Shown here piece by piece: positions 3,655-37,141 of a stretch of DNA of 64,000 nucleotides. Both the position numbers and the translations under genes were made by a program. The DNA is from Candidatus Rokubacteria bacterium RIFCSPLOWO2_02_FULL_73_56 (lineage in GTDB: Bacteria; Methylomirabilota; Methylomirabilia; Rokubacteriales; CSP1-6). The notes beneath the pieces were generated by a model. That model was not told where the DNA came from. It worked only from the letters and a program-made list of their open reading frames with translations, and did no database searches. Position 1 is the first letter of the stretch; each line of letters starts with the position of its first letter. The stretch covers positions 2,106-66,105 of the forward strand of contig MGCF01000006.1 in NCBI GenBank assembly GCA_001788495.1, given 5' to 3'.

Positions 3655-3659
3655 GGGCG

Positions 3660-5417: not shown

Positions 5418-5576
5418 CCCGCACTGGAGACCGAGCCAGTTCCGGTAGAAGGCCTCCGGCGTCGCCGCCTCGGCGAACTCGCGCCAGAGGGCGTCGAAGG
5501 AAGGCTCCCTGGGGCCGACGCCGCTCAGCGGCGGCGGCGGCGTGATCGGACGGTGGACCTCGACCAGGGCCGGCTC

Positions 5577-5915
5577 TTACGACGCCGCCGGCGCGTCGGC
5601 CTGCGCTCCCTCGACCTGGACGGCGCCAAACCGGGCTTCATGTTCCCGCAACACGTTGGCCAGGAGCGTCGACAGCCGCTTGGCGACGAACGGGTTGAGG
5701 ATGAGTCGGTCGGTGAGCTGCACCGTCACGTCCTTCTGCCCGGCGTGCCACGCCTGGTTGATGCCGAAGAGCAGGACGACCTCCTCGCGCGTGCTCGCGA
5801 CGTTGCAGACGTTCGAGTACGAGCTCTTCATCCGGGAATCGTCCCACTTGATGGTGAGCTGCTGGGCCGTGCGCTCGGGCCCGGCCACAGCTTCGCGTTC
5901 ACGCTCGTCCGCCAT
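5577..5915 (-). CDS. DUF3467-like small protein (copy 1), 112 aa.
   Basis: 'MADEREREAVAGPERTAQQLTIKWDDSRMKSSYSNVCNVASTREEVVLLFGINQAWHAGQKDVTVQLTDRLILNPFVAKRLSTLLANVLREHEARFGAV...' carries the YSN / EFV.L.FG / R.IL.P..AKRL / YE..FG signature I associate with DUF3467. It is in the same frame as the downstream GAF-HlyD gene, separated by one TAA. Confidence 0.65.
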   Translation of the reverse strand: MADEREREAVAGPERTAQQLTIKWDDSRMKSSYSNVCNVASTREEVVLLFGINQAWHAGQKDVTVQLTDRLILNPFVAKRLSTLLANVLREHEARFGAVQVEGAQADAPAAS

Positions 5916-5944
5916 ACCGTCTCCTCTCCTCCGCGCAGCGGGTC

Positions 5945-6892
5945 TCAGCTCGATGGGGTCCGGGTCAGTATGCCCGGCGGCCGCGGAGCCTCGGCCGCTC
6001 GAATGGGCACGAGCTCCGCGGCGTGCCACCCGTACCTCGCCGCGTAGGCCGCGTTGAGCCCCAGGCACCGCGTCGAGCTGCACGCCTCGCGATGCACGCA
6101 CTGGTAGAAGCCGTTGCGCCGGAACTCGGTCCAGAAGGCGGGGTCGATGAACAGCCGCGGCTGCGAGTTGTCGAGCGTGTCCCCGTCCTCGCCCAGCAGG
6201 CAGTGCGGAAAATTCTTGACCATGACGCCACGGTCGAGCGCGTGGCATCTGGCGATCGCCGTCCTCAGGAAGGGGAGCACCTCGAGGTGGGATGCGCCCA
6301 GCTCCTTGACGTCCTGCTCGTTCATGGCGAAGTAGACCCAGAACTCGTGCTGGACCATCCGCCGCAGGTGTCCGAGCCGGTCGACGAGCCGGGGCAGATG
6401 CCGGTAGCTCTTCACCGTGACGACGGTGTTCGTGAGGGTCGCGACGCCCGGCAGCGCGTCCAGGTTCTCCAGGCCCCGGAGGGTCTTGTCGAACGATCCC
6501 GGCACTGTCGTGATCGCGTCGTGCGTCTCGGCGTCCGCGGCGGTGACGCTCACGAAGAACTCGTCGACTCCCGCGTCGACCAGCTCTCGGCAGTAGGCCT
6601 CGCTCGCCAGGCGCATCCCGTGCGTCTGGATCCGCACGTGCTCGAAGCCCCTCCGCCGCGCCTGTCTGGCCAGCTCCGGCAGGTCACGCCGCAGCGTGAT
6701 CTCCGCCCCGGTGAGGATCAGACCCGTCCACCGTCGGTGCGTCGCGTTGTAGTCCAGGAGCTGCTCGAACCGGCTGAGCGACTCCGGCTCCAGCCGGTCC
6801 ATGGTGTCCTCGATCATGCAGTGGACGCAGGCCAGATTGCAGCGGAACTCCAGCGTCATCGACACGTAGCGATCGTCGTCAAACCGTCCCAC
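5945..6892 (-). CDS. Radical SAM enzyme with a C-terminal auxiliary Cys cluster (SPASM/twitch-like), a putative peptide- or protein-modifying maturase.
   Basis: 'RCNLACVHCMIED' is the CX3CX2C 4Fe-4S/SAM motif at residues 18-25. The C-terminal 'HCLLGEDGD...YQCVHREACSSTRCLGLN' Cys cluster suggests a second Fe-S site. Length 315 aa. Confidence 0.75.
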   Translation of the reverse strand: MGRFDDDRYVSMTLEFRCNLACVHCMIEDTMDRLEPESLSRFEQLLDYNATHRRWTGLILTGAEITLRRDLPELARQARRRGFEHVRIQTHGMRLASEAYCRELVDAGVDEFFVSVTAADAETHDAITTVPGSFDKTLRGLENLDALPGVATLTNTVVTVKSYRHLPRLVDRLGHLRRMVQHEFWVYFAMNEQDVKELGASHLEVLPFLRTAIARCHALDRGVMVKNFPHCLLGEDGDTLDNSQPRLFIDPAFWTEFRRNGFYQCVHREACSSTRCLGLNAAYAARYGWHAAELVPIRAAEAPRPPGILTRTPSS

Positions 6893-7235
6893 GGGGCTTC
6901 CCTTCCCTCTCGGCTCGAGTCGCCGGGGACCCTGCGCCCTCGAACCGCGCCTCGTACTCCGCGACCACCCGGCCGAGCAGCACGGCGAGCCGCTTCGCGA
7001 CCGGCGGACTCAGCACGATCCGCTGGCCGAGATCGACGACGAGCTCCTGGCGGTCGGTCCGCGAGGCGCGGCTCACGCCGAACGACAGGACGAACTCCGC
7101 GTCGCTGGTCGATACGTTGCACTGGTTCGCGTGCATCCGCCTGGCGCTCGCGTCGTCCCAGCGGACCCGGGCGGCGCCCGAGCTCACGGCTTCGTCCCCG
7201 TGACCAGGAAGAACGGCGTCTCGAGGTCGATCCAC
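6879..7235 (-). CDS. DUF3467-like small protein (copy 2), 118 aa.
   Basis: 'VRWDDASARRMHANQCNVSTSDAEFVLSFGVSRASRTDRQELVVDLGQRIVLSPPVAKRLAVLLGRVVAEYEARFEG' is paralogous to copies 1, 3 and 4. It overlaps the rSAM start by 14 nt and the O-MT stop by about 50 nt. Confidence 0.6.
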   Translation of the reverse strand: MDRPRDAVLPGHGDEAVSSGAARVRWDDASARRMHANQCNVSTSDAEFVLSFGVSRASRTDRQELVVDLGQRIVLSPPVAKRLAVLLGRVVAEYEARFEGAGSPATRAEREGKPRGTV

Positions 7236-8275
7236 CGGACGTCGACGCCGCGGAACCCGAGTGCGCCGAGCTGATCAACGTACGCCGCCGGCGAGCGAAA
7301 CGAGCGGAAGAACAGCAGCAGCGGGATCATCGCGTATGACGGCGCGCCGGTCGCGACCGGTCCCCGCTCGAAGATGAGGAGCGTTCCCCCGGGCTTCAGC
7401 GCCTCGCTCGCCCGGACGAGCAGACGCCTCGCGTCCCGCTCCGGCCAGTCGTGCAGCATGGACTTGAACGATACCAGATCGCGCCCGCCGGGCAGCGGAT
7501 CGGTCAGCGCGTTCCCCCGGACGAAGTCGATCCGCGCGCCTTCGGGCTCGCGCTCCACGTGTGCGCGGCCGATGTCGCACACCACGGGCAGGTCGAACAC
7601 CGTCGCCGTGACCGCCGGGTACCTCCGACAGATCCGGAGCGCGAATTCCCCGCTGTTGCCGCCGACGTCCAGGACCCGCTCGTGGCCCCCGAAGTCGTGA
7701 TGCTGCAGGCACACCCCGGCCTCGTACTTCGTGAGACACGTGGTGATGCGCATCCACCGTCGGGTCGCCTCGTAGTCCTCGGCGCTCGCCCCGAGCGCCC
7801 GGTCGTAGGAGAACAAGCGAAAGGTGCGGGCCTGACGCCGGAACGTCTCGGGGTCCCGGATCGCCGCCGTGAACAGGTCCGTGAAGTCCGGCAGCACCAG
7901 CGCGGCGTACTCGAGCTTCGTCTCGAGCAGGTCACGGAAGCGGAGGGCCCTCCGGAAGTCCTCGCTCAGCGCGACGCCTCGCGGCCGTTCCTCGACGACG
8001 CGGTTCGTCCGGAGCAGGTCCAGCAGCAGCCGCAGGCCGCGGCCGTCGCCCGGGAACCCCGTCGCGAGATCCGCGACGGCCATGGCCTCGTGGGCAGCCA
8101 GCCGGTCGATCACCCGGAGCTCGAACGCCGTCTTCAACGCCCGTGCGTCGATCAGGGTCGTGAGAAAGCCGTCGACACAGAGGTACTCCCGCTCGTCTGT
8201 GGGCTCCATGGACGCCGCCGGCGGCGGGCCCACCGCGAGGCCCCGAGCGCGGTCGGTCACGTCAAAAGACTCCAT
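7184..8275 (-). CDS. Class I SAM-dependent O-methyltransferase (plant-type OMT fold, dimerisation domain plus MT domain).
   Basis: 'ERVLDVGGNSGEFA' is SAM-binding motif I, and the C-terminus is OMT-like. Start taken as the ATG at 8275 ('MESFDVTDR'), which overlaps the upstream gene by 14 nt; the ATG at 8209 ('MEPTDEREY') is an alternative. Confidence 0.7.
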   Translation of the reverse strand: MESFDVTDRARGLAVGPPPAASMEPTDEREYLCVDGFLTTLIDARALKTAFELRVIDRLAAHEAMAVADLATGFPGDGRGLRLLLDLLRTNRVVEERPRGVALSEDFRRALRFRDLLETKLEYAALVLPDFTDLFTAAIRDPETFRRQARTFRLFSYDRALGASAEDYEATRRWMRITTCLTKYEAGVCLQHHDFGGHERVLDVGGNSGEFALRICRRYPAVTATVFDLPVVCDIGRAHVEREPEGARIDFVRGNALTDPLPGGRDLVSFKSMLHDWPERDARRLLVRASEALKPGGTLLIFERGPVATGAPSYAMIPLLLFFRSFRSPAAYVDQLGALGFRGVDVRWIDLETPFFLVTGTKP

Positions 8276-9134
8276 AATAGGCGCTCTTGAGGAACACCAG
8301 CCTGCCACCCTCCATACGGTAGTCGATCCCGACATCGTACAGCATGTGGCTCAGACTCGGCCGGTTCCTTTCGACGAACGACACGATCGCTTCCGGATAC
8401 GCCAGCCGCCGCAGGAAGAAGAGGAACTGATCCACGTCAATCCCGACGAAGTAGACGGCATCGTTCCGCTTCTTGTTCGCCACCACGATCACCCGGCACT
8501 TCTGCAGCTCCGGCCACAGGATCTCCTCGATCGGCACCCGCGTGGCGTCCATGTACGCGGAACACCCGGCCTTGTCCTTGATCTCCGCGAGCTGCGAGCG
8601 CGCGTCGAAGAAGAAGTAGAAGTTCTCGAGGGCGGTCCCGCGCTTCGTCAGCGAGTAGCAGATGCCCCCGGAGACCGTGCTCCCGGGCGTCCCGACATAC
8701 ATGTGGATCTCGTCCAGGGAGGCCGTCCCCGTCAGCAGCGACGGGCCCACGTCGAGCGAGAACATGAAGTACGGCAGGCGCTCGTTGACCGGGACGTCGC
8801 AGCGCACCCGAGGCCGGAGCGCCTCGGCGACTCGCGTGATGGAGCGCGTGCGCTCTCGGCGCCGATAGTCGTAGAAGTAGAGCTCCCAGCGCAGCTCGCC
8901 CCCGATCCACTTGACTCCGAAGACCGTCTTCGACACGCCGATCGCCTGCCGGAGGAGCGGCACCAGGTCGAAGCATTCCTCTCCCACCCCCGCGACCTCG
9001 AACGACCGGAACAGCAGGTTCACCGATCGAAACTTGCCGCCCGGGGGCGCGACCGGCTCGTACTCCCACAGGCAGAAGTCCTGCAGCGTCTCCCCCTCCG
9101 CCGCGTACTCGAGGCGCTCGTCGAGCGTCTTCAT
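8262..9134 (-). CDS. Hypothetical protein, 290 aa, aromatic/Lys-rich and markedly lower GC than its surroundings; distant paralogue of the C-terminal domain of the upstream gene.
   Basis: 'MKTLDERLEYAAEGETLQDFCLWEYEPV...NFYFFFDARSQLAEIKDK...FVGIDVDQFLFFLRRLAYPEAIVSFVERNRPSLSHMLYDVGIDYRMEGGRLVFLKSAYYGVF' has real-protein composition. Its ATG overlaps the upstream gene's TGA (ATGA at 9131-9134). Local GC is roughly 58% against about 72% elsewhere. Confidence 0.65.
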   Translation of the reverse strand: MKTLDERLEYAAEGETLQDFCLWEYEPVAPPGGKFRSVNLLFRSFEVAGVGEECFDLVPLLRQAIGVSKTVFGVKWIGGELRWELYFYDYRRRERTRSITRVAEALRPRVRCDVPVNERLPYFMFSLDVGPSLLTGTASLDEIHMYVGTPGSTVSGGICYSLTKRGTALENFYFFFDARSQLAEIKDKAGCSAYMDATRVPIEEILWPELQKCRVIVVANKKRNDAVYFVGIDVDQFLFFLRRLAYPEAIVSFVERNRPSLSHMLYDVGIDYRMEGGRLVFLKSAYYGVF

Positions 9135-10252
9135 TGCGCGCCGAAGTAGATGGAGAGGAAGTCCTTGCCTTCCCGGTCGAAACCGCCCGTCACGTGCCCG
9201 AAGGGCGCCGCGCTCACCTGCGCGTACGCCGCCTCGAACCGGTCCGCGGAGATCGCGTAGTGCTCGCAGATCCTGAGGAACAGGGCGTGGAGATCGCGCA
9301 GCCGCAGTCGCGCGTTGTAGAGGTTGATGTCGAACGAGTTCCGCGGGTTCCCCTCCTCGGTGGTCTCCAGGTACAGGAATCGATCGGCGGCCACCCGGCC
9401 CGCGGCCTGCAGGACGATCTCGCGCGCGAGCGCGAGCGGGGTACCGGAGGGGCCGCCCGCGAAGGCGCGGGCCATCCGCTCCAGCATGTCGTCGGTGGAG
9501 AGCCCGGGATGGCACGTGTACCGCGCGACGGAGCACCGCCGGCTGTCGTCGGCATCCCACTTGAATCCCAGGTACATGAGGAGGGGATCCCGCCGGTTCT
9601 CCGCCTTGGCCCTGACCAGTCTCCCCCCGAATTCCAGATAGGCCTTGTAGCGCTGCGTCCGCTCGCTCTCCTCGAAGCCGAAGAAGACGATGTTGGCCTG
9701 GAAGATGTTCTCGCGGAACGCCGCCACGAAGCGCTCCGGCATCCGGAGGCGCTCGCAGATCGCCAGGAGGCGCCCGCCGGCGTCCTCGCTGAGCGAATCC
9801 CGCTTGAAGCCCCACAGGAACCGGTTCGCGAGCAGGGTCCGCTCGAACATCTTGAAGGAGCGCTCGAGCACCGGCTGGACTCCGAGGTCCTCGACGAGGC
9901 GAAGCAGCTCGGCGGCCTGCTCGGGGATGCCTTCGGTGAGCGACACGGGCGACTTCCGGCTGGAGAGCGGCGCCGCCGGCGGCAGCGGCTCGCCCCCGAG
10001 CGAGCCGTGCTCCCACTCGTAGTCCCGGACGGCGTGCGCCAGCATGGCCGCGAGCCGCTTCGCGGTGGAAGGGCTCAGGACGATCCGGTCGGACACCTCG
10101 AGCACGAGCTCGTCGGTGCCGGGCACCCGGCGCCCCTTGCTCCCGAAGGACAGGGTGACCTCCGAGCGATCGGCGGACAGCTCGAACACGTTCGCGTAGC
10201 TCGTGCTCGCATTCGAGCCTTCCCAGCGCACCGGGACCCGAGCCTCAGACAT
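9131..10252 (-). CDS. DUF3467-like N-terminal domain (copy 3) fused to an unknown about 260-aa domain.
   Basis: 'MSEARVPVRWEGSNASTSYANVFELSADRSEVTLSFGSKGRRVPGTDELVLEVSDRIVLSPSTAKRLAAMLAHAVRDYEWEHGS' is DUF3467-like. The C-terminal '...FDINLYNARLRLRDLHALFLRICEHYAISADRFEAAYAQVSAAPFGHVTGGFDREGKDFLSIYFGAQ' resembles the C-terminus of the 290-aa neighbour. GGAGGG RBS 7 nt upstream; 93 nt downstream of the giant gene stop. Confidence 0.65.
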   Translation of the reverse strand: MSEARVPVRWEGSNASTSYANVFELSADRSEVTLSFGSKGRRVPGTDELVLEVSDRIVLSPSTAKRLAAMLAHAVRDYEWEHGSLGGEPLPPAAPLSSRKSPVSLTEGIPEQAAELLRLVEDLGVQPVLERSFKMFERTLLANRFLWGFKRDSLSEDAGGRLLAICERLRMPERFVAAFRENIFQANIVFFGFEESERTQRYKAYLEFGGRLVRAKAENRRDPLLMYLGFKWDADDSRRCSVARYTCHPGLSTDDMLERMARAFAGGPSGTPLALAREIVLQAAGRVAADRFLYLETTEEGNPRNSFDINLYNARLRLRDLHALFLRICEHYAISADRFEAAYAQVSAAPFGHVTGGFDREGKDFLSIYFGAQ

Positions 10253-10345
10253 CGGGGCCCTCCGCGCCCGACGGGTCGGCGGGGCCGACGCCGCCGCGTC
10301 CGCTCCTACCCGCCTCCACCGCCGGGATCAGTCTCCCTCGACACG

Positions 10346-13300
10346 TCACGCTCCGCTGATCGCGGTCGCGGGGCTCGCCTCGACCAGCTCGATGTCCGGG
10401 GCCACGTCGATGCTCCAGTCCAGGAGGTGCGACTCCGCCGACTCCGGCCGACTCAGCTCACCGCGCCGCGCGGCCGTCGTCAGGCTGCTCCAGAGATCCC
10501 CCGCCGCGTCGCCGTCGAAGATCCGGAAGTCGCGCAGGGCCGCCAGGACCCCGCCGCCGCGCTGCTCGTCGCGCGTGCTCAGGCCCGCGAACGCCCCCGC
10601 CGACCAGTCGATCCCCGGCGCGGCCGGTGCGAGGCGCACCGGCCCACCGAGCGCGACCTCGACAGGCTGCGCGGAACCCGTGTCGTGCGCGACGAGCCGC
10701 TCGCCCTGCGTCAGCGTCGGCGACATCACGTCGGCCACGCCCTCGTGCGCGAATCCCATCACGTGTCCGAGCTCGTGCATGGCCACCGTCAGCAGGTCCA
10801 CGCCGCCACTGCCGCCGCCGACGATCCAGCCGTACCCTGCAGCGTCGGCGTCGAAGACGATCGAGCGGCCCACGGTGGTGGCGAGCACCGGCCCGTCGAG
10901 CTCCGCGACCGCGAACCGGAAGTCCGCCAGCGCCCCCAGCCGCGAATCCCCGTTGCCCAGCGTGTCGGTCCACTGGCGGATCGCCGTGTCGACCGCGCCG
11001 TCCAGCGTGCGGACGTCGAGCGTGCCGGTCGCCGCCGGTGCGGACGCGATGGCCGCCGCTTCCATGTTCTGGCCGCCCGACTGCGCGAAGGCGGGATCCG
11101 TCGTCTTGATCGTGACGTTGTCGAAGCTCGCCGCTCCGCCGGTCGCGAACACGCCGAATCCGCCGTCCACGACGACCGCGTTGAACGCGAAGCCGACGAC
11201 CGCCTGACCGTTCAGCGTCACGCTGACCGTCGACCCCTTCAGCGAGATGCCCAGCGTGTAGTCGGTGCCCGCGTTGATCGTCCGGGCCACCGACGCGTCG
11301 ATGACCCAGCCGTTCTTCGCCGTGTAGTGCCCGATCACGACCTTGTCCGCGGGCGCGTCGATCGCGACGAACTTGAAGTCGTCCCCCTCGTACCGGTCGA
11401 AGACGAAGCCCGCGCGGCCCTGCGTGTTGACGATCGAGGACAGCTCGAGCACCGACGATACCTGGAACCCGCCGACGCCGAGGTCGATCAGCTTCGCCGC
11501 GGTCCCGCCCGAGGGCGGCACGGCCACGTAACGGCCGCCGCTCACGGCCCACGTTCCGCTCGTCGCGCCCGTGAACAGGTCGGCGACGCCGTCGCCGAAG
11601 TCCTCGGTCGACTGGAACGTCGCGGCCGCCTGCACCACCTGCACCTGGACGTTGTCGAACGAGCCGCGCGAGTTGTCCGAGCCCACCCCGACGAGGCCCC
11701 AGTTCAGGCCGTACGACCAGCCGTCGATCACCCGCGGCGCGAACGTGTAGGTCAGCGAGTCCTTGTTGTTGACGATGATCGTGGCGTTGAGGCCGTTGAT
11801 CGACAGCATCATGTTGTAGTACGTGTCGGCCTTCGCCAGGAACGGCGTCTGCTTGTCCACGTGCCAGCCCGAGGCGTCCCGGTGGCCGGCCACCAGCTTG
11901 TTCGTGGAGATGTCGATGCCGGTGAACTTGAAGTCGGTCTTCGTGTTGTAGTCGAAGATCAGGTAGGCGTTCCCCTTCCAGCCTGCCGTCGGCTTCACCA
12001 CGTCGACCGACGCGAGCATCTCGAAGTAGGCGGGCAGCGCGTCGCCGACCTGGTACACGGCGACCGCGTCGCCGCCCAGCGACTGCGCCGACACCTGGAG
12101 CGCGCCGCCCGAGACCGTCCACGCCCCGGAGTCGGCGAAGAACGCCTGGGCCGTACCGTCGTTGAAGTTCGCCGACCGCAGCACGTCGCGCTTGCCGCCG
12201 GGAACGTTCCCCGGCTGCGGGTCCGTGGGCGCGCCGGTCTGGTCGTGCCACGCGAAGTCCTGCTGCCTGATGACGGCGAGCTCGCCCTCCGGCTCGCCGT
12301 TCCGCGTCGGGTCCGCGCCCGTGTCGGCGGCGCGCGTCGGGTCGGCGCCGTCGTTGGCCGACAGCTGGTAGAGGAATTCCGCGAGCTGCGGCTGCAGCGT
12401 GCGGCTCACCGTCGCCATGCCGAACGGCGCAAACGGCACGAGGTAGCTGTTGAACTCGCCGGCCCAGTCGATGAGCCGGTCGCCGCCCGTGTTGCCGATC
12501 AGGACGTCGCGGCCGGCTCCGCCGAAGGCGCGGTCCTCGTAGCTGGCGGCCGTGTCGGGCGCGTTGTTGAGCCCGCCCGCCGTGGTCAGCACGTCGTCGG
12601 CGTTGAGCAGGTCGTTGCCCCAGCCGCCGTAGAGGTCGTCGCGACCCGTGCCGCCGACGAGCCAGTCGTTGCCCGTGTCGCCGAAGAGCGCGTCGTTGCC
12701 GTCGGAGAAGATCCCCGTCGCGACCTCCGCGCCCTCGGTGCTCACGAAGTTGAGGAAGAACTCCTTGCCCGCGCCCGTCTTCGACAGCTCGCCCACGTCC
12801 GTCAGCAGGATCTTCCGCAGCGGATCGTACTCGTCGTACAGCGCGAACTCGCCCGCGCGCCGCGTCCGGTCGACGTGCCAGCCGTCCGGGTCGTCCGGGT
12901 TGAAGCGGAGGATGTCGCCGTCCGCGAGGTTGAGCGGATGCCCGTAGTCGGTGCGGATGACGCCGATGAGCAGGTCGGTGGCGTCGTACAGCTGCGCGTA
13001 GGACTCGACCGGTGCCTCGGCGCCGGAGATCGCGTCGTCCCCCGAGCCGCCGTGGAGCGTGTCGTTGCCGACACCGCCGTAGATGATGTCGTCCGACTTG
13101 TGCGCGACCGTCGCGGAGCCGCCGAACTCGTCCTGGGTGCCGTTGAAGGTCACGTCCACGCTGAACGGCGTGAGGTCGGCCGTCTTCTTCAGCTGGCCGC
13201 TCACGTTGATGGTCGCCGACTGCACGTTGCCCGGCGTCGTGATGAGCAGGTCGAGCTGGCCGGCGAGGCTGCCGATCCCGTACAGCGGCTCCGCCGTGCC

Positions 13301-28300: not shown

Positions 28301-31300
28301 GTTCGGGTCGAACGTCGGGGCGGCGTTGTTGAACGCCTCGCCAAAGCTGCCGTCGTTGACGAGCACGGCGCTGGTCGTGCCGTCGCCCGAAACCCACGCG
28401 CCCGCGCCGATGAAGGCCTCGGTGGTCTTGCTGACGACGCTCACCGCGCCGGAGGCGGCGACGCCGGCGGTGCCGGACACCGCGAGCACGCCGACGATCT
28501 TGTCCATCTCGGTCTGGTCGTCGGCGGTGATGACGACGTTGCCGCCCGCGTGCACGTGGCCGGCGCCGGCGGAGGCCGGGCCGCCCGTGGGATCGTCGCC
28601 GATCCACGCCCGCGTCTGGTTCGTGACGATGTGCACCGACGCGTCGAGGGCCACCGACGCCGTGCCGCTGAGGCTCATGCCCGCCGCGACCGAGGTGACG
28701 TCCTCGCTCGCGACCGCGCTGACCTCGATGTCGCCCTCGACCTCCGCCGTGACGTTGGAGTCGATGTAGGCGAGCGTGTCCTTGGTGATGGTCGCGACGT
28801 CGGCACCGAGGCCCACGCCGGCCGTGCCGCCGGCCGCGAGGTTGCCGGCCACGGAGACGATGTCCGTGTCGTCCTGGGCGTGGACCGACAGGTCGGGCTT
28901 GCCCGAGGCGCCGTCGTTCACGGTGATGTTCGCGCTGCGGCCGATGAACGCGTGCGTGTGCTCCGTGAGGACGTTCACGACGGCCGAGCCCGCGACCCCC
29001 GCGGTGCTGGCGCCGCCGCCCGCGGCGGCGATCGTGATCAGGTCCTCGCTCGAGGTGGCGGCGATCGTGATGCCGGTCGCGCCGTCGGAGGTCACGACCG
29101 CGTTGTCGCCGATGTAGGCCTCGACCGTGTCGGTGTGGACGAGGACGCTGGCCGCCGCGCCGACGCCGGCCGAGCCCGCGCTCGCGCCGATCGACCCGGC
29201 GACCATCGTCGCGTCGAGGTGGCCGTCGGCCGTCACGTCGATGTCGCCCGCGTGCACGGTCGCGCCGCCGATGTATGCCCGCGTCGTCGTGGTGAGCACC
29301 TGGACCGTGCCGGAGCCGGCGACGCCGACGGAGTTCCCGATGCCGGCGTTCGCGGCGATCGAGACGATGTCCTCCGACGAGTCGGCGTCGACGGTGAGCG
29401 CGCCGGCGGAGTCGACGGTCGCGCCGGTCGTGATGTAGGCCTCGGTGTCCTTGGAGATCACGCTGACTTCGAGCCCGGCGCCGACGCCGGTGGAATCGGT
29501 CGAGATGCCGAGCGCGCCCGCGGCGTTCGTCATGTCGATCGTGCTGGACGCGTGCAGGCCCACCGACTGGCCGCTCGGGGTGATGCTGCCGTCCTGGTTG
29601 ACGGCCGCGGTCCCGGCGATGTAGGCGTGGGTGTTGACCGTGTAGATGGTGATGTCGGCCGCGCCCGCGATCCCGACGCCGCCGTTGCTGCCGCCGCCCG
29701 CCAGCGCCGCCGAGCTGATCGCGATTGCCGGGTCGTCGACGACGGAGTTGTCCGGCAGGTCGAGCGTCGGCGGGGGCGCCAGCGTCGTCGTGGCGTCGAC
29801 CGTCAGCGCGCCCGCGGCGTCCGCGGCGCCCGCGATGAACGCGTCCGTGTCGCTGGTCACCACGGTCACGGCCACGGCCGCGCCGACCGACGTCCCGCTC
29901 GAGAAGCCGACGCCCGCGGCGATCGTCTGGAGGATCAGCTGGTTCTCGGCCGTGACGTGCAGGGCGCCCGTCGACAGCAGGTGCGCCGTGTTCGCGACCG
30001 AGGCCTCCGTGGTGAACGTCACCACGTTGACGGCGACCGAGCCTGCGATCCCGATGTCGCCCGTGCCGCCGGCCGCCGCAGCGCCCCAGACGATGAACTC
30101 GTTCTTGTTGCTGCCGGTCGTGACGGCCTCGACCGTGATCCCGTCGCCGTGGATGACCGAGCCGCCCAGCACGCGCGCCTTGTTGTTGATGCTCGCGACG
30201 TTCACGCCGACCGCCGCGCCGATCATGTTCGAGTCCTCGAGCGTGACCGCGAGCCCGAGGGCCTTCGAGGTCTCGTCCACCTCGGCCTGCGCGCTGACCT
30301 TCACGGCGCCGGTCGTCGTGATGTCGGCGCCGCTGGCGACCTCCGCGATGTTGTCGAGGCCGATGTAGCTCACCGCCACCGCGGCCGCGACGCCGACGCC
30401 GCTCGAGCCGCCGCCCGACTCGCCGCCGGCCGTGCCGCTCGCGGCGCTGGTCTGCCCGCTCGCCGACGGCGTCGACTGCGAGCCGGCGTTGCCCGTGACG
30501 TTCGTGGTGTTCGCGGCGCCGCTCGACTTCGAGTCCGCGCTCTGACCGCCCTCCGACTGCTTCTTCTCGCCGCCCGCGCTCGCGTTCACCTCGAGCGTGC
30601 TCGACATCTTGGACTTGGCCTGGACCGTGAAGCTACCGCTCGCGTTGTCCACGCTGCGAGCCAGCGTCGCCGTGCTGCTGTCGGTGACGACGACCACGCC
30701 GACGGAGGCGCCGATCGCCGCATCCGAGCCTTCGGCCTCGGAGCTGACCGTCGTGCCGAAGGTGCCCTGGTGGTCGGTGCTGATCTGGGAGGCGCCGCCG
30801 CCGAGATGGACGACGCCGCCGGTGCCGACCCGCGCGGTCGTGTGGTTCTCGGAGATGACGACCGCCACGGCGGCGCCGATGCCGGTGTCGCCCTTCGCGC
30901 CGTTCTTCGCCTCGGTCGTGAGGTCGTCCTTGCCGGTCGCCTGGGCCGACAGGTGGTCGATGCCGGTGCCCGTCACCGCGACGCCGTTCTCGAGCTCGGC
31001 CGTGGTGTCGTGCAGGACCAGGTTCAGGGCGAACGAGGCGCCGATACCCGCGCTGTCGGCCCCGCCCTCGCCGTCGCTGTCCTCGTCGGGCAGCGCCTTG
31101 GCGGTGTCCTCGGCCACCGAGGTGGCGGTGAGCTGGATCCCGCCGACTCCGGTCCCGCCGTCGCCGCCGTCCGCCAGGTTCAGGGTCGCGCCCGTCTCGA
31201 TGGACGCCGTCGTGTCGACGTCCGAGTAGTTGATGGCGACCGAGGCCGCGATGCTGATGTCGTCGGCGCCGGCGCCCGAGGTCGCCTGGGCGGAGAACGA

Positions 31301-34285
31301 GTGCTTGTCGGTCACCTCGGAGACGACGTCCGTCATCTCGGCCTTGACGCTGACGCCGTCGGCCGTGATCGTCGCGTCGCCGATGTGGGCGGAGTTCGTC
31401 ACGAGGGCGACGTTGATGGCCACCGCGGCCGCGATGCCCGTGCCGGCGTTGGCGACCGTCCCGTCGGCGGTCGCGCTCGCGTCCACGTTCTCGGAGGCCT
31501 GGACCGTCAGGGCGCCGTCGGAGTCGATCGTGACGCCGTCCGCGATCTGGGCGCGCGCCGTCGCCTTGGCGACGTTCACGGCGATCCCCGCGGCCACGCT
31601 CACGTTGTCGTTGTCCTGGTTCTGGGCCTTGGCCTTGTCGTTGCTGCTGTCCGCGCCCGAGGCGTGGCTGCCGCTGCCGCGGTTGGCGCTGGCCTGGGTG
31701 TTGCCGAAGTCCCGCTGCTGATTGCTCTTCTGCTGGGCGTTCTTCCCGCTGGAGTCGCTGCCCTCGCCCTCCCCGCCTTCCGCGCTCGCCTTGGCCTCGG
31801 CCAGGCTCTTCGAGCGCCCCTTGGCCTTGAACCGTGTCGCCCCGCCGGTGGTGACGCTGCGCGTCGTCTCGGACACGACCGTGTCCTGCGCCCAGCCGAA
31901 GGCGATCGCCACGCCGACCGCGACGTCGGTGCCGACGGCCTTGCCCTCGGCCTTCGTGCTGACGTCGCTCGTGCCGCTGGCGTCCGCGAGCAGCTCGCCC
32001 CCGACCACGAGCGCCGGCTGCAGCGCCGTGCCCTGGATCTGGGTCGCCGTGTCGAGGGTCACGACCGAGACGGCGACGACCGGCGCGATCGCGTTCCCGC
32101 CGGCTCCGCCGCCCTTGGCCTCGGTCTCGATCGTGTGGGTCGCCGTCGCCGTGAGGTGCACGTCGTCGGCGTCCGTGAAGACGACGCCGGAGCCGATCGT
32201 CGCCTTCGTGTCGTTGTCGGCGACGGTGAGCGCCACCGAGGCGCCGACGCCCGTGCTCTTGCCGGCGTCGTCGTCGCCGTCGTCGTCGTCGATGCTCGCC
32301 TCGGCCCTCGCCGTGATGTGGGTCGTCGACTCCGCCAGCAGCGTCAGGCTGCTGCCGTTGAGGTCGACCGTCGCCGCGGGGTCGACCAGCGCGTAGACGT
32401 TCGCGATCGTGACGTTGATCGCCAGCGCCCCGGCGAGCGCAAGGCCCGACGACCCCCCGCTCGCCCCGGACTTCGCGGTCACGTCGAAGTGGCTGTCCGG
32501 CATCACCGCGTGCACGGTGATCCCGTTCGGCCCGTCGAGGCTCGGGCTGCCCGTGAGCCACGCCTTGACCTCGACGACGTGCACGCCGATGCCGACGCCG
32601 AGGCCCACGCCCTCGGGGTTGTTGTCGGTCGTCGAGCCGTCGCCGATCGTGGCGATGTCGTAGGTGCCGCTCGCGGTGAGGCCGATCGTCGTGTCCGAAG
32701 TGATCGTCGCGTCGTCGATCTCGGCCCACGTGTGGCCGGTGATGACCGACACCGCGACGGTCGCGGCGAAGTTGACGTTCCCCTCGCCCGTCGCGGCCCG
32801 ATCGCTCGTGTCGCTGTCGTCGTTCGGGTCCTTGAGCCGCTCCTTGGACGTCTGCGAGCCGTCGTCGGCGTGGTCCTTGGCGCCCTTGGGCGACGCCTTC
32901 GCCGTCGTGTCGACGGTCCGGCTGGTGGTGGCCGCGATCGCGACCGAGCTTGCGTCGATCGAGGTCGTCGCGTCGCTGATCACGACTTCCGTGTCGCCGA
33001 AGACCACGCTCACGGCGACGATGGCGCCCGCGGTGCTCGAGTTGCCGAGCGTGCCGTCGGCCGTCGTCGTGAGGTGGACGGTGTTCGTCGCGTCGATCGT
33101 CGCCGCCCCCGTCGCCACCAGGTCCGAGTCGTTGTGGACGGTGACCGTGGCCGAGCTGCTGACGACCGCGACCGCGAACGAGGCGTCCGTCGTGGTTTCG
33201 GTGTTGTCCTTGCTGCCGTCGGTCGGATCGGGCTTCCGCGCGAGCGTGAGGCTCGGCATGCTCGACGTGGCGTCGATGTCGATCGTGCCGGTCGCGGCGA
33301 GGTCCGCGTTGTCGAGGTCCACGGTGGCGGACGAGAACAGCAGCAGCTCGCTGAAGTTGACCTTCCCGTCGAGCTTGCTGGCGGTGTTGATCGTCACCGT
33401 TTCCTGGCTCAGGGCCAGGATCGTGATGTCGTGACCGCTGATCGTCGAGTTCGTGACCGTGACCTCGGCGGACGGCAGCTGCAGGAAGTCGGCCGAGTCG
33501 GCGTCGCCCGTGACGGTGCTGGGCTTCCCCGCGTTGAGCGTCACGTCGTGCGCGCTCAGCGTCGTGCCGGTCATGTGGATCGTCGAGTCGGACTCGACGG
33601 TGAGATCCTTGCCGCCGGTGAGCGTGAACGTGCTGGCGGCGACCTCGATGTCGCTCGAGCTGTGGAACCGGAGGTTGAAGCCGACGCTCGTCGGGCCGGT
33701 GCCCTGCAGGCGGAAGAGATCGTTGCCGATGCCCGGGATGACGCCCTCGAGGAACGAGATGTCCTTGCCGCCCACGAAGTCGATGTCGAGGAGCCCGCCG
33801 TCGCCGCTCACGAAGGTCGCGAGCGCGGGCAGGTCGAACGAGTCGAGATCGATGCGGATCGTGTCGCCCCGGAGGTCGCTGTTGGTGTCCCCACCGTCGC
33901 GCTGGATGACGACCTGGTGCTCCCCGGCGTTGTCCAGCACGGCGGAGGCGAGGACGTTCCCGAGGTTCCCCGTCTCGCGCAGCTCCAGGATCGGGTCGGA
34001 GCCGCTCAAGTCCGCGACCAGCGTCATGTCGGCGACGAGGCTGAGCGTCGGGTACGTGAGGTTCGCGGACAGCAAGAGCCGCGGCTCCAGCGTCTCGAGC
34101 GCGAACGCCTGGCGCTGCCGCGCGAGGTCCGCGAGACGCGCCCACCGGCGGCCGGCACGGCGCCGCTGGGCGCCCTGCGCGTAGATCGATTGCATGAGGC
34201 GATGGAAAAAGAGCTCGGCGATCGTGCGGACACGCGAAGCGCGCCGACGCGGACGGGACGGACGGGCGTCGAGCAGCGTGGTCAT
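10346..34285 (-). CDS. Giant (7,979 aa) extracellular repeat/adhesin-like protein with N-terminal LEPR-XLL-type motif, about 45-aa beta-repeat arrays, RTX calcium-binding repeats, two LamG-like domains and a C-terminal metzincin zinc-protease domain.
   Basis: Single uninterrupted ORF with coherent Thr/Ser/Gly/Ala/Val/Asp-rich repeat composition. N-terminus '[74 protein letters not shown]' has no hydrophobic signal peptide. The internal 'GGxGxDxUx' nonapeptides, LamG-like blocks and C-terminal '[22 protein letters not shown]' (HExxHxxGxxH plus Met-turn) are listed as separate features. The long antisense ORFs across it (9134..20083+, 23297..28243+, 28277..35887+) are artefacts. Confidence 0.9.
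   Translation of the reverse strand: [7979 protein letters not shown]
10349..11020 (-). other. C-terminal metzincin-type (matrixin/M10-like) zinc metalloprotease domain of the giant protein.
   Basis: '[33 protein letters not shown]...[28 protein letters not shown]' shows HExxHxxGxxH followed by a Met-turn. HELGH maps to about 10765-10777. Confidence 0.6.
11100..12180 (-). other. Two tandem LamG/concanavalin-A-like lectin/glucanase domains in the giant protein.
   Basis: Two about 180-aa blocks of beta-sandwich-like sequence, '[20 protein letters not shown]...[36 protein letters not shown]...FDNVQVQV' and '[22 protein letters not shown]...[36 protein letters not shown]...FDNVTIKT'. Approximate coordinates. 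Confidence 0.5.
12460..14910 (-). repeat. RTX/hemolysin-type calcium-binding nonapeptide repeat region of the giant protein (approx. residues 6460-7275).
   Basis: Multiple 'GG.G.D.L.G' runs, e.g. '[41 protein letters not shown]', '[31 protein letters not shown]', '[50 protein letters not shown]', '[31 protein letters not shown]'. Coordinates are approximate, from residue counting. Confidence 0.7.
34064..34090 (-). other. LEPRLLLSA motif (LEPR-XLL-type N-terminal sorting/recognition motif) at residues 66-74 of the giant protein.
   Basis: Direct read of the translation. I recall the motif as the signature of a named N-terminal domain of giant repetitive proteins whose function is unknown. Confidence 0.6.
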
Positions 34286-34628
34286 TTGAGGCTCCCTTGG
34301 AGAGCGAGCAGAGGCAGGGCGATGAGACGAGAAACCCGCGGATGCGAGTGCCAGCGCCTCCCGGAAATCACCTGGGCGGTTCTCCTACGGGCTAGCGAGC
34401 GACGCCACGGGTTGTGGCGGCGCCACTCTCGGACCAAACCTGTGCGTTGTCAAGGGCCGTTCTGCTGGCACCCGGGGCATTTCCGGAAGGCCCGCCGGCC
34501 CAGGTCAGGAGGCGTGCCTCCGGGTCACCGCCACGCCCCTCCCCCGATGACGCGAATTCCGGGCGGTGCGATCATGGCCCTGGCTCCCCGGTCATGGCAA
34601 GACGACAGGCCGTCCAGGCGCCGGCCCG
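34286..34628. promoter_or_regulatory. Divergent intergenic/promoter region between the giant-protein operon (minus) and the glycosyltransferase gene (plus).
   Basis: About 340 nt non-coding, the only sizeable gap upstream of a roughly 34-kb co-directional gene string. No motif could be assigned with confidence; a TGGCAC-containing stretch at about 34464 does not have correct sigma54 spacing. Confidence 0.35.
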
Positions 34629-35645
34629 ATGACGGCGGCAGACGCGCGGCGGGTGGTGCTCGTCGCTCCACCGTACGGCTGGCTGCGCGGCGAAGTGCCG
34701 AGACGCTGGCTCTCGGGACGCGGCGTCGACGCCGTGCTGCTCGCCCATGCCTCGCCGCAGTTCGGGGTCCCCGGCGCGATGGACGCCATCGAAGCCCTGG
34801 CGCGGAGCGCCCCTGCGACGTGGCACTTCTACCCCTTCCCGCACGACGAGTATCTGATCGACACGCTCCAGGCGCGCGGCCACCGGGTGCTCGTCGGCCT
34901 CGACGACGACTACTGGCACCCGAGCCCCTGGCATCCCGTCGGACCCCGGCTGGACAGCCTCCCAGACCTCGAGGCGCTGCTCGCCGCCGCCGACGGCCTG
35001 GTCGTCACGACGGAGCCGCTCGCCGGGATCGTCGCGCGCTTCAACGCCAACGTCGCCGTCGTGCCGAACGCCCTCGACCTCGAGGCGATGCCGGCGGCCC
35101 GCCCGCCACGGGAGGGACGGGCCAGGCGGGTTGGATGGAGCGGCTGGCCGGGACACCGGGGCGACACGGCCCTCCTCGAGGCGCCGCTGCGCGCGCTGCT
35201 CGCGGAGGACCCGGAGCTCACCTTCGTCGTGGCCGGCGAGCTACCGGCCTGGGCGGTGGGCGAGGCCCGGGTGGAGCGCGATACGCGCCTGCTCCCTCCG
35301 CTGGCACACTACCGGCGGCTCGCGCGGCTGGAGATCGATCTGTTCGTCGCGCCGCTGGTCGAGCACCCGTGGAACGAGGCGCGGAGCCTGCTGAAGGCCC
35401 TCGAGGCGGCCGCGCTGGGACTCCCGATGATCGTGTCCGACGTGGGCCCGTATCGCGCCGTGCCCGCGGATGTCGCGCTGAAGGTTCCGAACACCGCGGC
35501 GGCCTGGCGCGCGGCCCTCGAGCGGCTGATCGCCGACGCCGCGCTGCGGAGGGCGCTCGCCGGGCGCGCGCTTGCATGGCTCCGAGAACACCACACGATC
35601 GACACCACCGGTCCGCTCTGGCGGGCGGCGCTCGCCGCCGTGTGA
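34629..35645 (+). CDS. Glycosyltransferase, GT-B fold (family 1/4-like).
   Basis: C-terminal 'LLKALEAAALGLPMIVSDVGPY' resembles the GT1/GT4 donor-binding motif. Rossmann-like 'RRVVLVAPPYGW' at the N-terminus. Start at the ATG at 34629; a GTG at 34566 is an alternative. Confidence 0.6.
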   Translation: MTAADARRVVLVAPPYGWLRGEVPRRWLSGRGVDAVLLAHASPQFGVPGAMDAIEALARSAPATWHFYPFPHDEYLIDTLQARGHRVLVGLDDDYWHPSPWHPVGPRLDSLPDLEALLAAADGLVVTTEPLAGIVARFNANVAVVPNALDLEAMPAARPPREGRARRVGWSGWPGHRGDTALLEAPLRALLAEDPELTFVVAGELPAWAVGEARVERDTRLLPPLAHYRRLARLEIDLFVAPLVEHPWNEARSLLKALEAAALGLPMIVSDVGPYRAVPADVALKVPNTAAAWRAALERLIADAALRRALAGRALAWLREHHTIDTTGPLWRAALAAV

Positions 35646-35676
35646 CGGCCCGCGTTGGGGGGCCGGCGCGCGCGGC

Positions 35677-35988
35677 TCAGCCCGGCAGCGCCCCGAACCG
35701 CGCCTCGTACTCCCTGAGGATGTTGGCGAGCAGCGCGGAAAGCCGCTTGGCCGCCATGGGGCTCAGAATGATCCGGTCCGTGAGCTGCACCGGGATCTCT
35801 TTCTGGGCGCTGTGCCAGGCCTGGTTGATCCCGAACAGGAGGACGACCTCCTCGCGTGTGCTCGCGACGTTGCACACGTTCGCGTAGGAGCTCGTCATGT
35901 TCGAGTCGTCCCACTTGATCTGAGGCTGGGCCTGCGCCTGCCCGGCCGGCCGCGGTGACGGGGTCTCTGCGCTCCGTTCGTTGGCCAT
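35677..35988 (-). CDS. DUF3467-like small protein (copy 4), 103 aa, near-identical core to copy 1.
   Basis: 'IKWDDSNMTSSYANVCNVASTREEVVLLFGINQAWHSAQKEIPVQLTDRIILSPMAAKRLSALLANILREYEARFGALPG'. About 85% aa and about 87% nt identity to 5577..5915 over roughly 250 bp. Confidence 0.65.
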   Translation of the reverse strand: MANERSAETPSPRPAGQAQAQPQIKWDDSNMTSSYANVCNVASTREEVVLLFGINQAWHSAQKEIPVQLTDRIILSPMAAKRLSALLANILREYEARFGALPG

Positions 35989-36115: not shown

Positions 36116-37141
36116 TCAGAACGCGATCGCGCCGCGCCCGAAGAGCGTGCGCGCGCGGAGCTTGGCGTGGAGCTCCGTCACCCGCTCGAGCGGAACCACC
36201 TCGGACACCACGGGGCGGATCGTGCCCGCGGCTACGAGGCGCGCCGCCTCGCCGAGCTCCCAGCGCGACGCGTAGCGCGAGCCGAGGACCGTGATCTCCT
36301 CGGTCACCAGGCGCCGCGAGGCGACCTCGAGCGTGATGCCCGGGAACGTCGTCAGGACGACCATCCGCCCGCGGCGCGCGAGCACGTCGAGGCAGAAGGC
36401 GTGCGTCTCGCGGCTGCCCACGAGGTCGATCGCCACCGTGGGGCCCGCCGGCGCCGCGGCCGCGAGCCGCGCGCGCGCGTCCGGCGCGCGGAAGTCGAGC
36501 GTCGTGCCGGCGCCGAGCTCCCGCGTCGCGTCGAGCTTCGCCGCGTCGAGGTCGACGGCGATCACCTCGGCGCCGCAGAGCCGCGCCATCTGCACCATGT
36601 GCACGCCCACCCCGCCCGCGGCGCCCACGATCATGACGACGTCCGCCGGGCCGATGCCCGCGCGCCGCGAGACGTGGAAGGGCGTCGCGATCGCGTCGGG
36701 GATCGCGGTGGCCTCGACGGCGCCGAGCCCTTCGGGCACGGGCAGAAGGTTCCCGGCGGGCAGCGCGGTGTACTCGGCGTAGCCCCCGTCGGCGGCGACG
36801 CCCACGTAGCCGCGGAGGTTGCGGCAGAGCGGCTCGTGGGCCAGGCGGCAGAAGTCGCAGCCGCCGCACGCGAGGTAGAAGTACGCCATCACGCGCCGGC
36901 CGACCTCGGGGTGCGCGACGCCGGGGCCGAGCGCGGTGACGATCCCGACCAGCTCGTGGCCGGGAATCCGCGGGAGGTCCTCCGGCCGCCCGCCGAGGTT
37001 GCCGTTCATCGCGTTGAGCACCGTGAGCCCGACGCCGCACGCCTCGACGCGCACCAGCGCCTCGCCCGCGGCCGGCGCCGGCGTCGGCACGTCGGCGGGC
37101 GTCACCTCGCCGCCCCACGCGTGGAGGACCTGGGCTCGCAT
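36116..37141 (-). CDS. Zinc-dependent alcohol dehydrogenase (MDR superfamily).
   Basis: 'GHELVGIV' catalytic-Zn motif, 'CGGCDFC' structural-Zn motif, 'VMIVGAGGVGVHMVQMA' NAD-binding GxGxxG. Confidence 0.8.
   Translation of the reverse strand: MRAQVLHAWGGEVTPADVPTPAPAAGEALVRVEACGVGLTVLNAMNGNLGGRPEDLPRIPGHELVGIVTALGPGVAHPEVGRRVMAYFYLACGGCDFCRLAHEPLCRNLRGYVGVAADGGYAEYTALPAGNLLPVPEGLGAVEATAIPDAIATPFHVSRRAGIGPADVVMIVGAAGGVGVHMVQMARLCGAEVIAVDLDAAKLDATRELGAGTTLDFRAPDARARLAAAAPAGPTVAIDLVGSRETHAFCLDVLARRGRMVVLTTFPGITLEVASRRLVTEEITVLGSRYASRWELGEAARLVAAGTIRPVVSEVVPLERVTELHAKLRARTLFGRGAIAF

Follow-up and report, generated by a model that had tools for sequence, protein, structure and literature searches.

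The 64,000-nt stretch of DNA analyzed here (the window) is from Candidatus Rokubacteria bacterium RIFCSPLOWO2_02_FULL_73_56 (assembly GCA_001788495.1, contig MGCF01000006.1, positions 2,106 to 66,105 of the forward strand), has a GC content of 72%, and encodes a giant protein together with four copies of the small domain DUF3467 (PF11950). Why should one locus hold so many copies of a single domain, and are two of them, copies 1 and 4, direct repeats that could mobilize the locus, or old members of a gene family that works with the giant protein? As the initial annotation had proposed, there are four DUF3467 genes; all lie on the minus strand, and each product scored above the Pfam gathering cut-off of 25 bits that we used as the threshold for membership of PF11950. 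The genes in question are as follows:

5577-5915, minus strand, DUF3467 copy 1 (112 aa; PF11950 77 bits), the canonical cassette-linked copy
6879-7187, minus strand, DUF3467 copy 2 (102 aa; PF11950 56.7 bits); the longest open reading frame (ORF) extends to 7235
9131-10252, minus strand, DUF3467 copy 3 (373 aa; PF11950 48.2 bits at residues 6-85, ~9998-10237)
35677-35988, minus strand, DUF3467 copy 4 (103 aa; PF11950 80.9 bits), upstream of the giant gene
10346-34285, minus strand, giant protein (7979 aa) with a LEPR-XLL leader, RTX repeats and a C-terminal matrixin-like HExxH region

The answer that we favor, at a probability of about one in two, is that DUF3467 would serve as a cytosolic adaptor or recognition module for the maturation and export of the giant protein. 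The evidence for this reading comes from the genes that accompany DUF3467, and copy 1 is followed, toward the left edge of the window, by three of them:

3660-5417, minus strand, GAF - transmembrane segment - HlyD-type periplasmic adaptor (585 aa; Pfam GAF, HlyD_3 and HlyD_D23; NCBIfam RND_mfp 99.6 bits)
1507-3656, minus strand, PqqD (RRE-like) - peptidase M50 - HlyD protein (716 aa; Pfam PqqD, Peptidase_M50, HlyD_3 and HlyD_D23)
1-1514, minus strand, SecA paralog, its N-terminal 504 residues, cut by the window edge (SecA_DEAD 336 bits and preprotein cross-linking domain)

A scan anchored on DUF3467, with one genome per species, yielded 80 loci whose DUF3467 proteins are 56-77% identical to copy 4. 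These loci are from at least six phyla (Rokubacteria/Methylomirabilota, Burkholderiales, other Proteobacteria, Acidobacteriota, Nitrospiraceae, Gemmatimonadales and Acidimicrobiales), and the Burkholderiales loci include that of the isolate Ramlibacter paludis XY19. The GAF-HlyD gene was directly downstream of DUF3467 in 51 of the 74 loci with enough flank, the full trio of GAF-HlyD, M50-HlyD and SecA-like genes was present in 37 of 56, and in 33 loci the SecA-like gene was followed by one for a short adaptor (~280 aa, with a signal peptide), as is the case in the closest Rokubacteria locus (L003, 12514-13377); in the window the position of the short adaptor or of TolC would fall beyond the left edge. 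The conserved cassette is headed by DUF3467 and continues with GAF-HlyD, PqqD/M50-HlyD, the truncated SecA, the short adaptor and sometimes TolC. In the 47 loci with all four proteins, the median identity to the window proteins was 65% for DUF3467 versus 48-56% for the other three. Two or three DUF3467 copies, often in tandem, were found in 10 of 82 loci (the 80 plus L001 and L002). Most cassettes have no modification enzyme at all, and a maturase adjoins copy 2 (the radical SAM enzyme) and the DUF3467 genes of accessory modules in other loci. In several Burkholderiales loci (L013, L027, L032, L064 and L074) a methyltransferase-like gene of ~555 aa lies on the opposite strand between DUF3467 and GAF-HlyD.

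The SecA paralog of the window has Walker A (METGEGKTL) and DEAD (VDEADSVL) motifs. Its full-length orthologs, found in at least 40 loci, are 650-668 aa long and align to residues 18-606 of B. subtilis SecA, so that they span the two nucleotide-binding domains and the preprotein cross-linking domain, extend into the beginning of the scaffold helix, and lack the wing domain, the two-helix finger, the C-terminal tail and the zinc-binding C-terminal domain. The paralog fell below every NCBIfam cut-off for SecA (657 versus 814 bits). Its C-terminus is a tail conserved across phyla, [LM]LAF[ST]GRxE (L003-L082), which could be a docking peptide. The PqqD/M50-HlyD protein, which begins with a GTG at 3654-3656 and has orthologs of 715-730 aa, contains HELGH (HExxH) and NANPLLRYDG (NxxPxxxxDG) motifs and matched the NCBIfam daptide intramembrane metalloprotease with an E value of 5e-48, below the family cut-off. 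The genes of the cassette are closely packed: a gap of 3 nt separates GAF-HlyD from M50, and the M50 stop overlaps the ATG of the SecA paralog by 8 nt. Neither the locus of the window nor the annotated loci of the isolates contained a gene for an ATP-binding cassette (ABC) or C39 exporter. A SecA_DEAD protein without wing and scaffold domains, with GAF-HlyD and Peptidase_M50-HlyD proteins as neighbors, is what Kamneva, Poudel & Ward 2015 (PLoS One, PMC4452313) described as a module, to which we return below.

The second recurrent neighbor of DUF3467 is the giant protein itself. The giant of the window matched NCBIfam NF012209 (LEPR-8K) with 28.8 bits at residues 61-81 (~34043-34105), against a cut-off of 17, and also matched HemolysinCabind (137 bits; RTX) and Peptidase_M10 (28 bits). 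Its last 1500 residues (10346-14845) contain a matrixin-like zinc-protease motif, MHELGHVMGF, and its C-terminal region has a weak similarity, below the Pfam cut-off, to 3-keto-disaccharide hydrolases. Giants beside DUF3467 whose N-termini are visible have in common a basic leader of ~75 residues that ends in LEPRLLLSA[DN]; the LEPR motif was identified in loci L001, L016, L017, L044, L048 and L062 and in four isolates. A same-strand ORF of at least 1000 aa lies directly upstream of DUF3467 in 20 of 53 loci, often exceeding 3000 aa and being cut by the edge of the locus, and in other DUF3467 loci the giant comes after DUF3467. Metagenome contigs were also searched for the LEPR leader, and in the resulting 80 loci an accessory module or core cassette was present immediately ahead of the giant start, in the same orientation, in 24 of the 72 with more than 1 kb of upstream flank and in 11 of the 23 with more than 6 kb; both fractions are lower bounds because a cassette placed after a gene of more than 20 kb escapes the reach of the scan. 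Since this giant-anchored scan found either of them upstream of the giant start, both DUF3467-containing modules are tied to LEPR-XLL giants.

The accessory module consists of a copy-2-like DUF3467, an O-methyltransferase, a radical SAM enzyme, a DUF3467-X fusion and a 290-aa protein. In the window its members, beyond copies 2 and 3 themselves, are these:

5945-6892, minus strand, radical SAM enzyme (315 aa; PF04055 70 bits) with a CNLACVHC (CxxxCxxC) cluster motif
7184-8335, minus strand, class I O-methyltransferase (Methyltransf_2 90 bits and dimerization domain)
8262-9134, minus strand, conserved 290-aa protein (unk290), conserved with the accessory module in relatives
9131-9967, minus strand, C-terminal domain of copy 3 (~280 residues, fused to DUF3467)

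Copies 2 and 3 belong to this second recurrent modification module, which often lies just upstream of giants. Copy 3 and unk290 overlap by 4 nt, the methyltransferase and copy 2 by 4 nt, and copy 2 and the radical SAM gene by 14 nt; judged from the sequence, copy 2 is predicted to be translationally coupled to the O-methyltransferase and radical SAM genes. The start of copy 2 is probably the GTG at 7187, because its called homologs are 102 aa long. The best NCBIfam matches of the radical SAM enzyme were all far below their cut-offs, and unk290, which is kept with the module in L002, L006, L012, L032 and many of the loci L086-L160, had no match in Pfam, NCBIfam or the PDB, a profile search included. 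The initial annotation had copy 3 fused to an enzyme-sized domain, and we agree: DUF3467 is followed by ~280 further residues, and the same type of fusion occurs in several lineages (P0215, P0255, L002, L032 and L052). The C-domain of copy 3 has no relative in Pfam, NCBIfam or the PDB and is unrelated to unk290. The best PDB match of its profile was a LynF/TruF/PatF peptide O-prenyltransferase (9vtd_A), at a non-significant E value of 0.55 and as two co-linear weak segments, which we regard as a lead and not as a result.

The linkage of giant, DUF3467 and cassette extends from Rokubacteria to cultured Alpha- and Betaproteobacteria. The same gene order was found on annotated plasmids of four cultured Alphaproteobacteria, with giants of 4033-12737 aa whose leaders all end in [LIF]EPR.LL[SN]AD. 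In Thalassospira marina a 4033-aa protein, named 'LEPR-XLL domain-containing protein' by the Prokaryotic Genome Annotation Pipeline, is followed by DUF3467, an HlyD adaptor, M50/HlyD, the short adaptor and TolC (L163, 18456-20765); in Mesorhizobium ciceri R30 a 10,518-aa giant is followed by DUF3467, the short adaptor, HlyD, M50/HlyD and the SecA-like gene; in Methylosinus sp. C49 an 8,847-aa giant precedes DUF3467, an adaptor, a 'PqqD family protein', the SecA-like gene, the short adaptor and TolC (L166, 20310-22623), which makes TolC part of two of the four loci; and in Pseudosulfitobacter sp. DSM 107133 a 12,737-aa giant precedes DUF3467, an adaptor, a PqqD-type protein and a 'translocase'. 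The SecA paralog is labeled differently in these annotations, as 'prepilin peptidase' in Methylosinus (L166, 18425-20341), 'DEAD/DEAH box helicase' in Mesorhizobium (L164, 19337-21298) and 'translocase' in Pseudosulfitobacter, and all three of these inconsistently labeled proteins matched the SecA-like protein of the window at 350-438 bits (Methylosinus, 417 bits).

What kind of protein is DUF3467? In an alignment of the four copies with homologs, 13 columns were invariant, and the product of copy 4 is 100% identical to a Candidatus Rokubacteria protein. Past the domain, which terminates in RFG and has no double-glycine cleavage site, the tails are only 4-20 residues long, of low complexity, rich in Ala, Pro and Gly and free of Cys and of recurrent modifiable residues, which bears out an earlier remark that they are short and not Cys-rich; copy 4 and its orthologs terminate in ALPG. 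An AlphaFold model built on 115 diverse sequences (predicted local distance difference test score, pLDDT, of 90; with only 19 sequences the model was unusable, pLDDT 53.5) predicts three beta-strands and one long helix, flanked on either side by a disordered tail, of which the C-terminal one is short. A sequence search of the PDB with copy 4 gave no match; none of the copies matched the PqqD hidden Markov model, and fold searches produced neither a PqqD match nor a SecB fold. No helix-turn-helix or other known nucleic-acid-binding motif was found in DUF3467. Some distant family members (P0197, P0223 and P0278) carry two DUF3467 domains in tandem behind a hydrophobic N-terminal stretch, possibly a signal peptide or a membrane anchor. 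The near-fusion of DUF3467 to HlyD that had been suggested for copy 1 holds for this locus and not for the system: the copy 1 stop lies in the open frame of GAF-HlyD with no second stop between (window 5417-5579), as it does in L002, and across related loci the two genes share a frame in 10 of 32 pairs, which is chance. Programmed read-through from copy 1 into GAF-HlyD was rejected on that basis.

In the subfamily studied here, the LEPR-XLL giant is the common denominator of the DUF3467 contexts, which are the cassette with or without the SecA paralog, the modification module, and stand-alone copies upstream of giants (L001, L017 and L062). An adaptor role is favored because each functional unit has its own DUF3467 (a free one ahead of the export genes, one coupled to the radical SAM gene and one joined to the enzyme-sized domain), much as RiPP recognition elements (RREs; RiPP, ribosomally synthesized and post-translationally modified peptide) are distributed among the enzymes of a pathway. 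We propose that the four genes are ancient paralogs of one small cytosolic domain, with copy 1 as the first gene of a type-I-secretion-like cassette. DUF3467 would not be cargo; it would bind a feature common to the giants, most plausibly the 75-residue N-terminal leader ending in LEPRLLLSA, or alternatively other DUF3467 copies, in an assembly built on DUF3467-DUF3467 contacts, and would hand the unfolded giant to its paired partner, which would be the export machine for copy 1, the radical SAM enzyme for copy 2 and the fused domain for copy 3. Leader removal would then fall to the PqqD/M50 protein, and export of the chain to the SecA-like motor and an HlyD/TolC conduit. A more specific form of this proposal is offered tentatively: DUF3467 may be a new leader-recognition module, an analog of the RRE with an unrelated fold, that binds the LEPR-XLL leader and whose paralogs couple modification (by the radical SAM enzyme, the methyltransferase and a possible prenyltransferase-like domain) to export driven by SecA and M50, in which case the truncated SecA motor and the M50 protease would replace the ABC transporter of type I secretion.

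Several observations weigh against the adaptor role. The ligand of DUF3467 is deduced from gene neighborhood only. In classical type I systems RTX repeats go together with a C-terminal signal and an ABC transporter, and the export route of the giant could differ from the one proposed, a classical type I system being possible. Thalassospira marina keeps DUF3467 with no SecA paralog in the locus. Among the 80 close relatives, 25 are orphans away from the cassette, some of them beside housekeeping genes, including translation genes (thrS-infC-rpmI-rplT-pheST), and others beside PAS-GGDEF-EAL genes; just downstream of an orphan DUF3467, a PAS-GGDEF-EAL gene was seen in several Burkholderiales, in 14 loci (L021, L038, L043, L045, L047, L069, L082 and others). 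DUF3467 may act in trans. Lastly, all three of the Planctomycetota DUF3467 genes examined sit in unrelated neighborhoods, from which it follows that the family is wider than the LEPR/cassette system; these single-domain proteins are ~140 aa long, have Gln/Pro-rich tails and are no less conserved, with 76-80% identity between distant planctomycetes.

The same evidence bears on three other accounts of the domain. DUF3467 could itself be the substrate, that is, a RiPP-like precursor with a long folded leader (NHLP/Nif11-like) and a tail that is modified, cut by PqqD/M50 and exported through HlyD/TolC, and such a role would suit the PqqD-type leader-binding domain of a protease that resembles the daptide leader protease, the placement of copy 2 immediately upstream of the radical SAM gene, the several paralogs per genome that occur, like NHLP/Nif11 precursors, as tandem pairs and scattered orphans, and the fact that DUF3467 always adjoins the cassette, with a giant visible in only ~40% of loci. 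However, the tails hold no hypervariable core with modifiable residues as NHLP/Nif11 precursors do, and their length, composition and lack of Cys, down to the ALPG ending of copy 4 and its orthologs, speak against a precursor, as do the absence of modification enzymes from most cassettes and of a double-glycine motif and a C39 exporter. Across phyla DUF3467 is moreover better conserved than any other component, which is contrary to the usual behavior of exported peptides, and one paralog forms the N-terminal part of a stable fusion with a 280-residue domain. We consider the precursor account unlikely, and the short tails, predicted fold, conservation and stable fusion together fit better with the initial annotation's suggestion of an adaptor/recognition or chaperone-like module.

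A regulatory or nucleic-acid-binding factor that binds no substrate, whether an operon autoregulator, a translation or co-translational targeting factor for a very long mRNA, or a source of input to the GAF sensor, would explain the very high conservation of DUF3467, the orphans beside translation and PAS-GGDEF-EAL genes and the housekeeping-like contexts of the planctomycete copies, and a sensory role has been proposed for the adjacent GAF protein (Kamneva et al., PMC4452313). The enzyme-sized fusion and the coupling to radical SAM are hard to explain for a regulator of DNA or RNA, and with no known nucleic-acid-binding motif, helix-turn-helix or other, in the domain such a function seems improbable to us. 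Still less probable is a role as an export chaperone of the SecB type, with the SecA paralog as its docking site. DUF3467 is indeed a small beta-rich domain with a helix, shares an operon with the SecA paralog in the 37 of 56 loci given above, and could find a docking peptide in the conserved LAFSGRxE tail; nevertheless, the paralog lacks the zinc-binding C-terminal domain that SecB binds, and DUF3467 persists where the locus has no SecA paralog and in the modification module. A SecB-like chaperone was accordingly rejected on the fold searches and the missing SecB-binding domain.

Turning to the second part of the question, copies 1 and 4 had been described as diverged direct repeats of about 87% identity that bracket the whole locus and might mediate its excision or duplication. 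A repeat search returned the two as a pair:

5590-5852, repeat arm 1 (263 nt, 75% identity to arm 2)
35657-35919, repeat arm 2 (partner of arm 1)

This is the only long two-copy direct repeat in positions 1-40000, and the direct orientation on the minus strand, ~30 kb apart, was confirmed (spacing 30067 nt). The 87% identity applies to the best 100-nt window (5753-5852), with values of 75% over the 263 nt and 77.6% over the 228-nt conserved core (5625-5852 versus 35692-35919). The similarity ends at the borders of the domain: the 150-nt flanks of the pair are 37% and 27% identical, compared with 30 +/- 5% for random window pairs. Within the coding core, identity at codon positions 1, 2 and 3 is 0.84, 0.92 and 0.57, and the NG86 estimates of nonsynonymous (dN) and synonymous (dS) divergence are 0.13 and 1.08, the synonymous sites being saturated, to the extent that two other estimators failed. 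The longest exact run between the copies is 17 nt. The same codon is used at 32 of 58 shared residues, against 38.4 +/- 3.1 expected from the codon usage of the locus, and in the most similar 100 nt at 20 of 28, against 19.2 +/- 2.1. The codon-level tests thus exclude that copies 1 and 4 were duplicated recently or have undergone gene conversion, with no trace of either even in the best 100 nt, and the outcome named beforehand as contrary to the repeat claim, similarity at the protein level with random synonymous sites, is the one that was observed.

Comparison with other genomes points the same way. Copy 1 is 90% identical at the nucleotide level to the gene of L003 (86-90% for its orthologs in L002 and L003) and copy 4 is 90% identical to the gene of L001, which lies upstream of a 7548-aa giant, so that orthologs in different genomes are 90% identical, compared with 77.6% for the two paralogs of the window. 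In a neighbor-joining tree copies 1 and 4 formed sister clades within Rokubacteria, each with its orthologs, and copy 1 grouped with cassette-linked copies, with copies 2 and 3 on long separate branches and copy 2 among other accessory-module copies. Copy 4 would have arisen from copy 1 by a duplication within Rokubacteria, before the split of the sampled genomes. A deletion of the locus in related genomes had been suggested as a check, and what was found is retention: GCA_975098975.1 has all four copies at the same relative positions around its 7548-aa giant. Because dS is saturated, codon identity is no greater than expected from codon bias, and closer orthologs exist in other Rokubacteria, copies 1 and 4 are old paralogs, not recombinogenic repeats, and strong purifying selection together with GC-rich codon bias accounts for their nucleotide resemblance. 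Nor does the pair bracket the locus, since its most conserved part, the core cassette, lies outside it, downstream of copy 1.

That the copies nevertheless function as direct repeats driving excision, deletion or duplication of the 30-kb segment is therefore a very remote prospect, and this reading is already largely refuted. Beyond the orientation, the spacing and the 87% of the best 100 nt, it could draw on the slightly lower GC content of the locus (positions 1-36000, 68-72%) than of the right flank (36001-64000, 72-77%), a difference of 3-6% that could reflect either the amino-acid composition of the giant or horizontal acquisition, and on the horizontal spread that has been proposed for the core module. 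It is opposed by a longest match of only 17 nt, an overall identity of 75-78% that falls to background outside the coding core, saturated synonymous sites with no sign of gene conversion and the retention of both copies, with orthologous identity, in another genome; in addition, the window contains no tRNA gene, and no integrase or transposase was found among its annotated ORFs.

The remaining features lie at and beyond the right end of the locus:

34566-35645, plus strand, group 1 glycosyltransferase (Glyco_trans_1_4 35.8 bits)
36116-37141, minus strand, zinc-type alcohol dehydrogenase (ADH_N and ADH_zinc_N)

The loci of L002 and L003 likewise contain an ortholog of the glycosyltransferase. 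Membership of the alcohol dehydrogenase in the system is doubtful; it is not kept beside DUF3467 elsewhere (2 weak matches in 82 loci). The genes flanking the locus are ordinary metabolic and transport genes, and a GGDEF protein is encoded at 48845-49996, ~13 kb from the locus. Antisense to the giant, on the plus strand, are long ORFs with as many as 3649 codons (9134-20083, 20117-22957, 23297-28243 and 28277-35887); these were rejected as genes and regarded as artifacts of the 72% GC content and a coding strand rich in GC at third codon positions. Taken as a whole, the locus from 34285 down to position 1 is a large one-directional operon that produces a LEPR-XLL/RTX protein of 7979 residues, modifies it and probably carries out its export.

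The export and maturation of bacterial proteins of 4,000 to more than 12,000 residues are poorly understood, and three items connected with them have so far had no function, namely the DUF3467 family (~2,000 clusters at 50% identity), the LEPR-XLL signal and the secondary-SecA/HlyD/M50 module of 2015. The neighborhood evidence joins all three into one testable system that is present in cultured, transformable bacteria (Mesorhizobium, Methylosinus, Ramlibacter and Thalassospira). If the adaptor role is correct, the RiPP-like logic of leader, recognition module, tailoring enzymes, leader protease and exporter would be applied to giant proteins, and leader recognition in particular would at once give DUF3467 a function, LEPR-XLL a meaning and the 2015 module a cargo. 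By comparison, the claim of recombinogenic repeats was an ordinary one, and it is refuted. In the literature searched, DUF3467 had one passing mention, PF11950 none, and LEPR-XLL was mentioned only in passing.

Among known systems, the resemblance to SecB is that of a small cytosolic protein encoded with a SecA-family motor, with a dissimilar fold and a SecA paralog that has no SecB-binding domain. The likeness to RREs is closer and serves as our working analogy: DUF3467 is a small domain with several copies per cluster, free beside a radical SAM enzyme or fused to an enzyme, and on our proposal would bind one shared leader. This likeness is functional only, as PqqD-like RREs have a winged helix-turn-helix and a three-stranded sheet and DUF3467 has three strands and one helix; furthermore, the presumed substrate is a protein of 8000 residues rather than a peptide, and the true PqqD domain of the locus is on the protease. 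Giant RTX adhesins of the LapA type are secreted by an ABC transporter, an HlyD-type adaptor and TolC under LapG/LapD control, and cyclic di-GMP controls the retention of giant type I adhesins in other bacteria. The present system has in common with them a giant cargo with RTX repeats, HlyD-family adaptors and TolC, a plausible N-terminal proteolytic processing, and cyclic di-GMP genes near some loci. It differs in that the place of the ABC transporter is taken by a truncated SecA motor and an adaptor-fused M50 intramembrane protease, in the N-terminal LEPR-XLL leader as a targeting element, and in DUF3467, which has no counterpart in the Lap system.

Two published observations are nearer still. 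West-Roberts et al. 2023 (bioRxiv 10.1101/2023.11.21.568195) reported SecA_DEAD and preprotein-binding domains, without scaffold or wing, that are embedded in giant proteins of Omnitrophota and Actinobacteriota and were suggested to serve the giants' own export. A SecA motor of the same truncated form is associated with giant proteins here, but as a separate protein of 650-668 aa in a cassette with adaptors, M50 and DUF3467, rather than within the giant polypeptide. The module of Kamneva et al. (PMC4452313), built around secondary SecA_DEAD proteins without the wing/scaffold domain and present also in Methylobacterium, was proposed to form a type-I-like machine in which SecA_DEAD would be the ATPase and M50 might be the pore, and to have spread horizontally, and its biological role was described as 'completely unknown'; no follow-up was found in the literature searched. 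It shares with the present cassette the SecA paralog, GAF-HlyD, Peptidase_M50-HlyD, a short HlyD/biotin-lipoyl protein, sometimes OEP/TolC, and a patchy distribution over multiple phyla, while its description includes no DUF3467, PqqD domain, giant LEPR-XLL protein or any cargo. To that module our analysis adds DUF3467 as the lead gene, the LEPR-XLL giants as a recurrent neighbor and a second, DUF3467-containing modification module. DUF3467 is thus a regular component, overlooked until now, of a little-studied set of secretion-like genes that keeps company with giant surface proteins.

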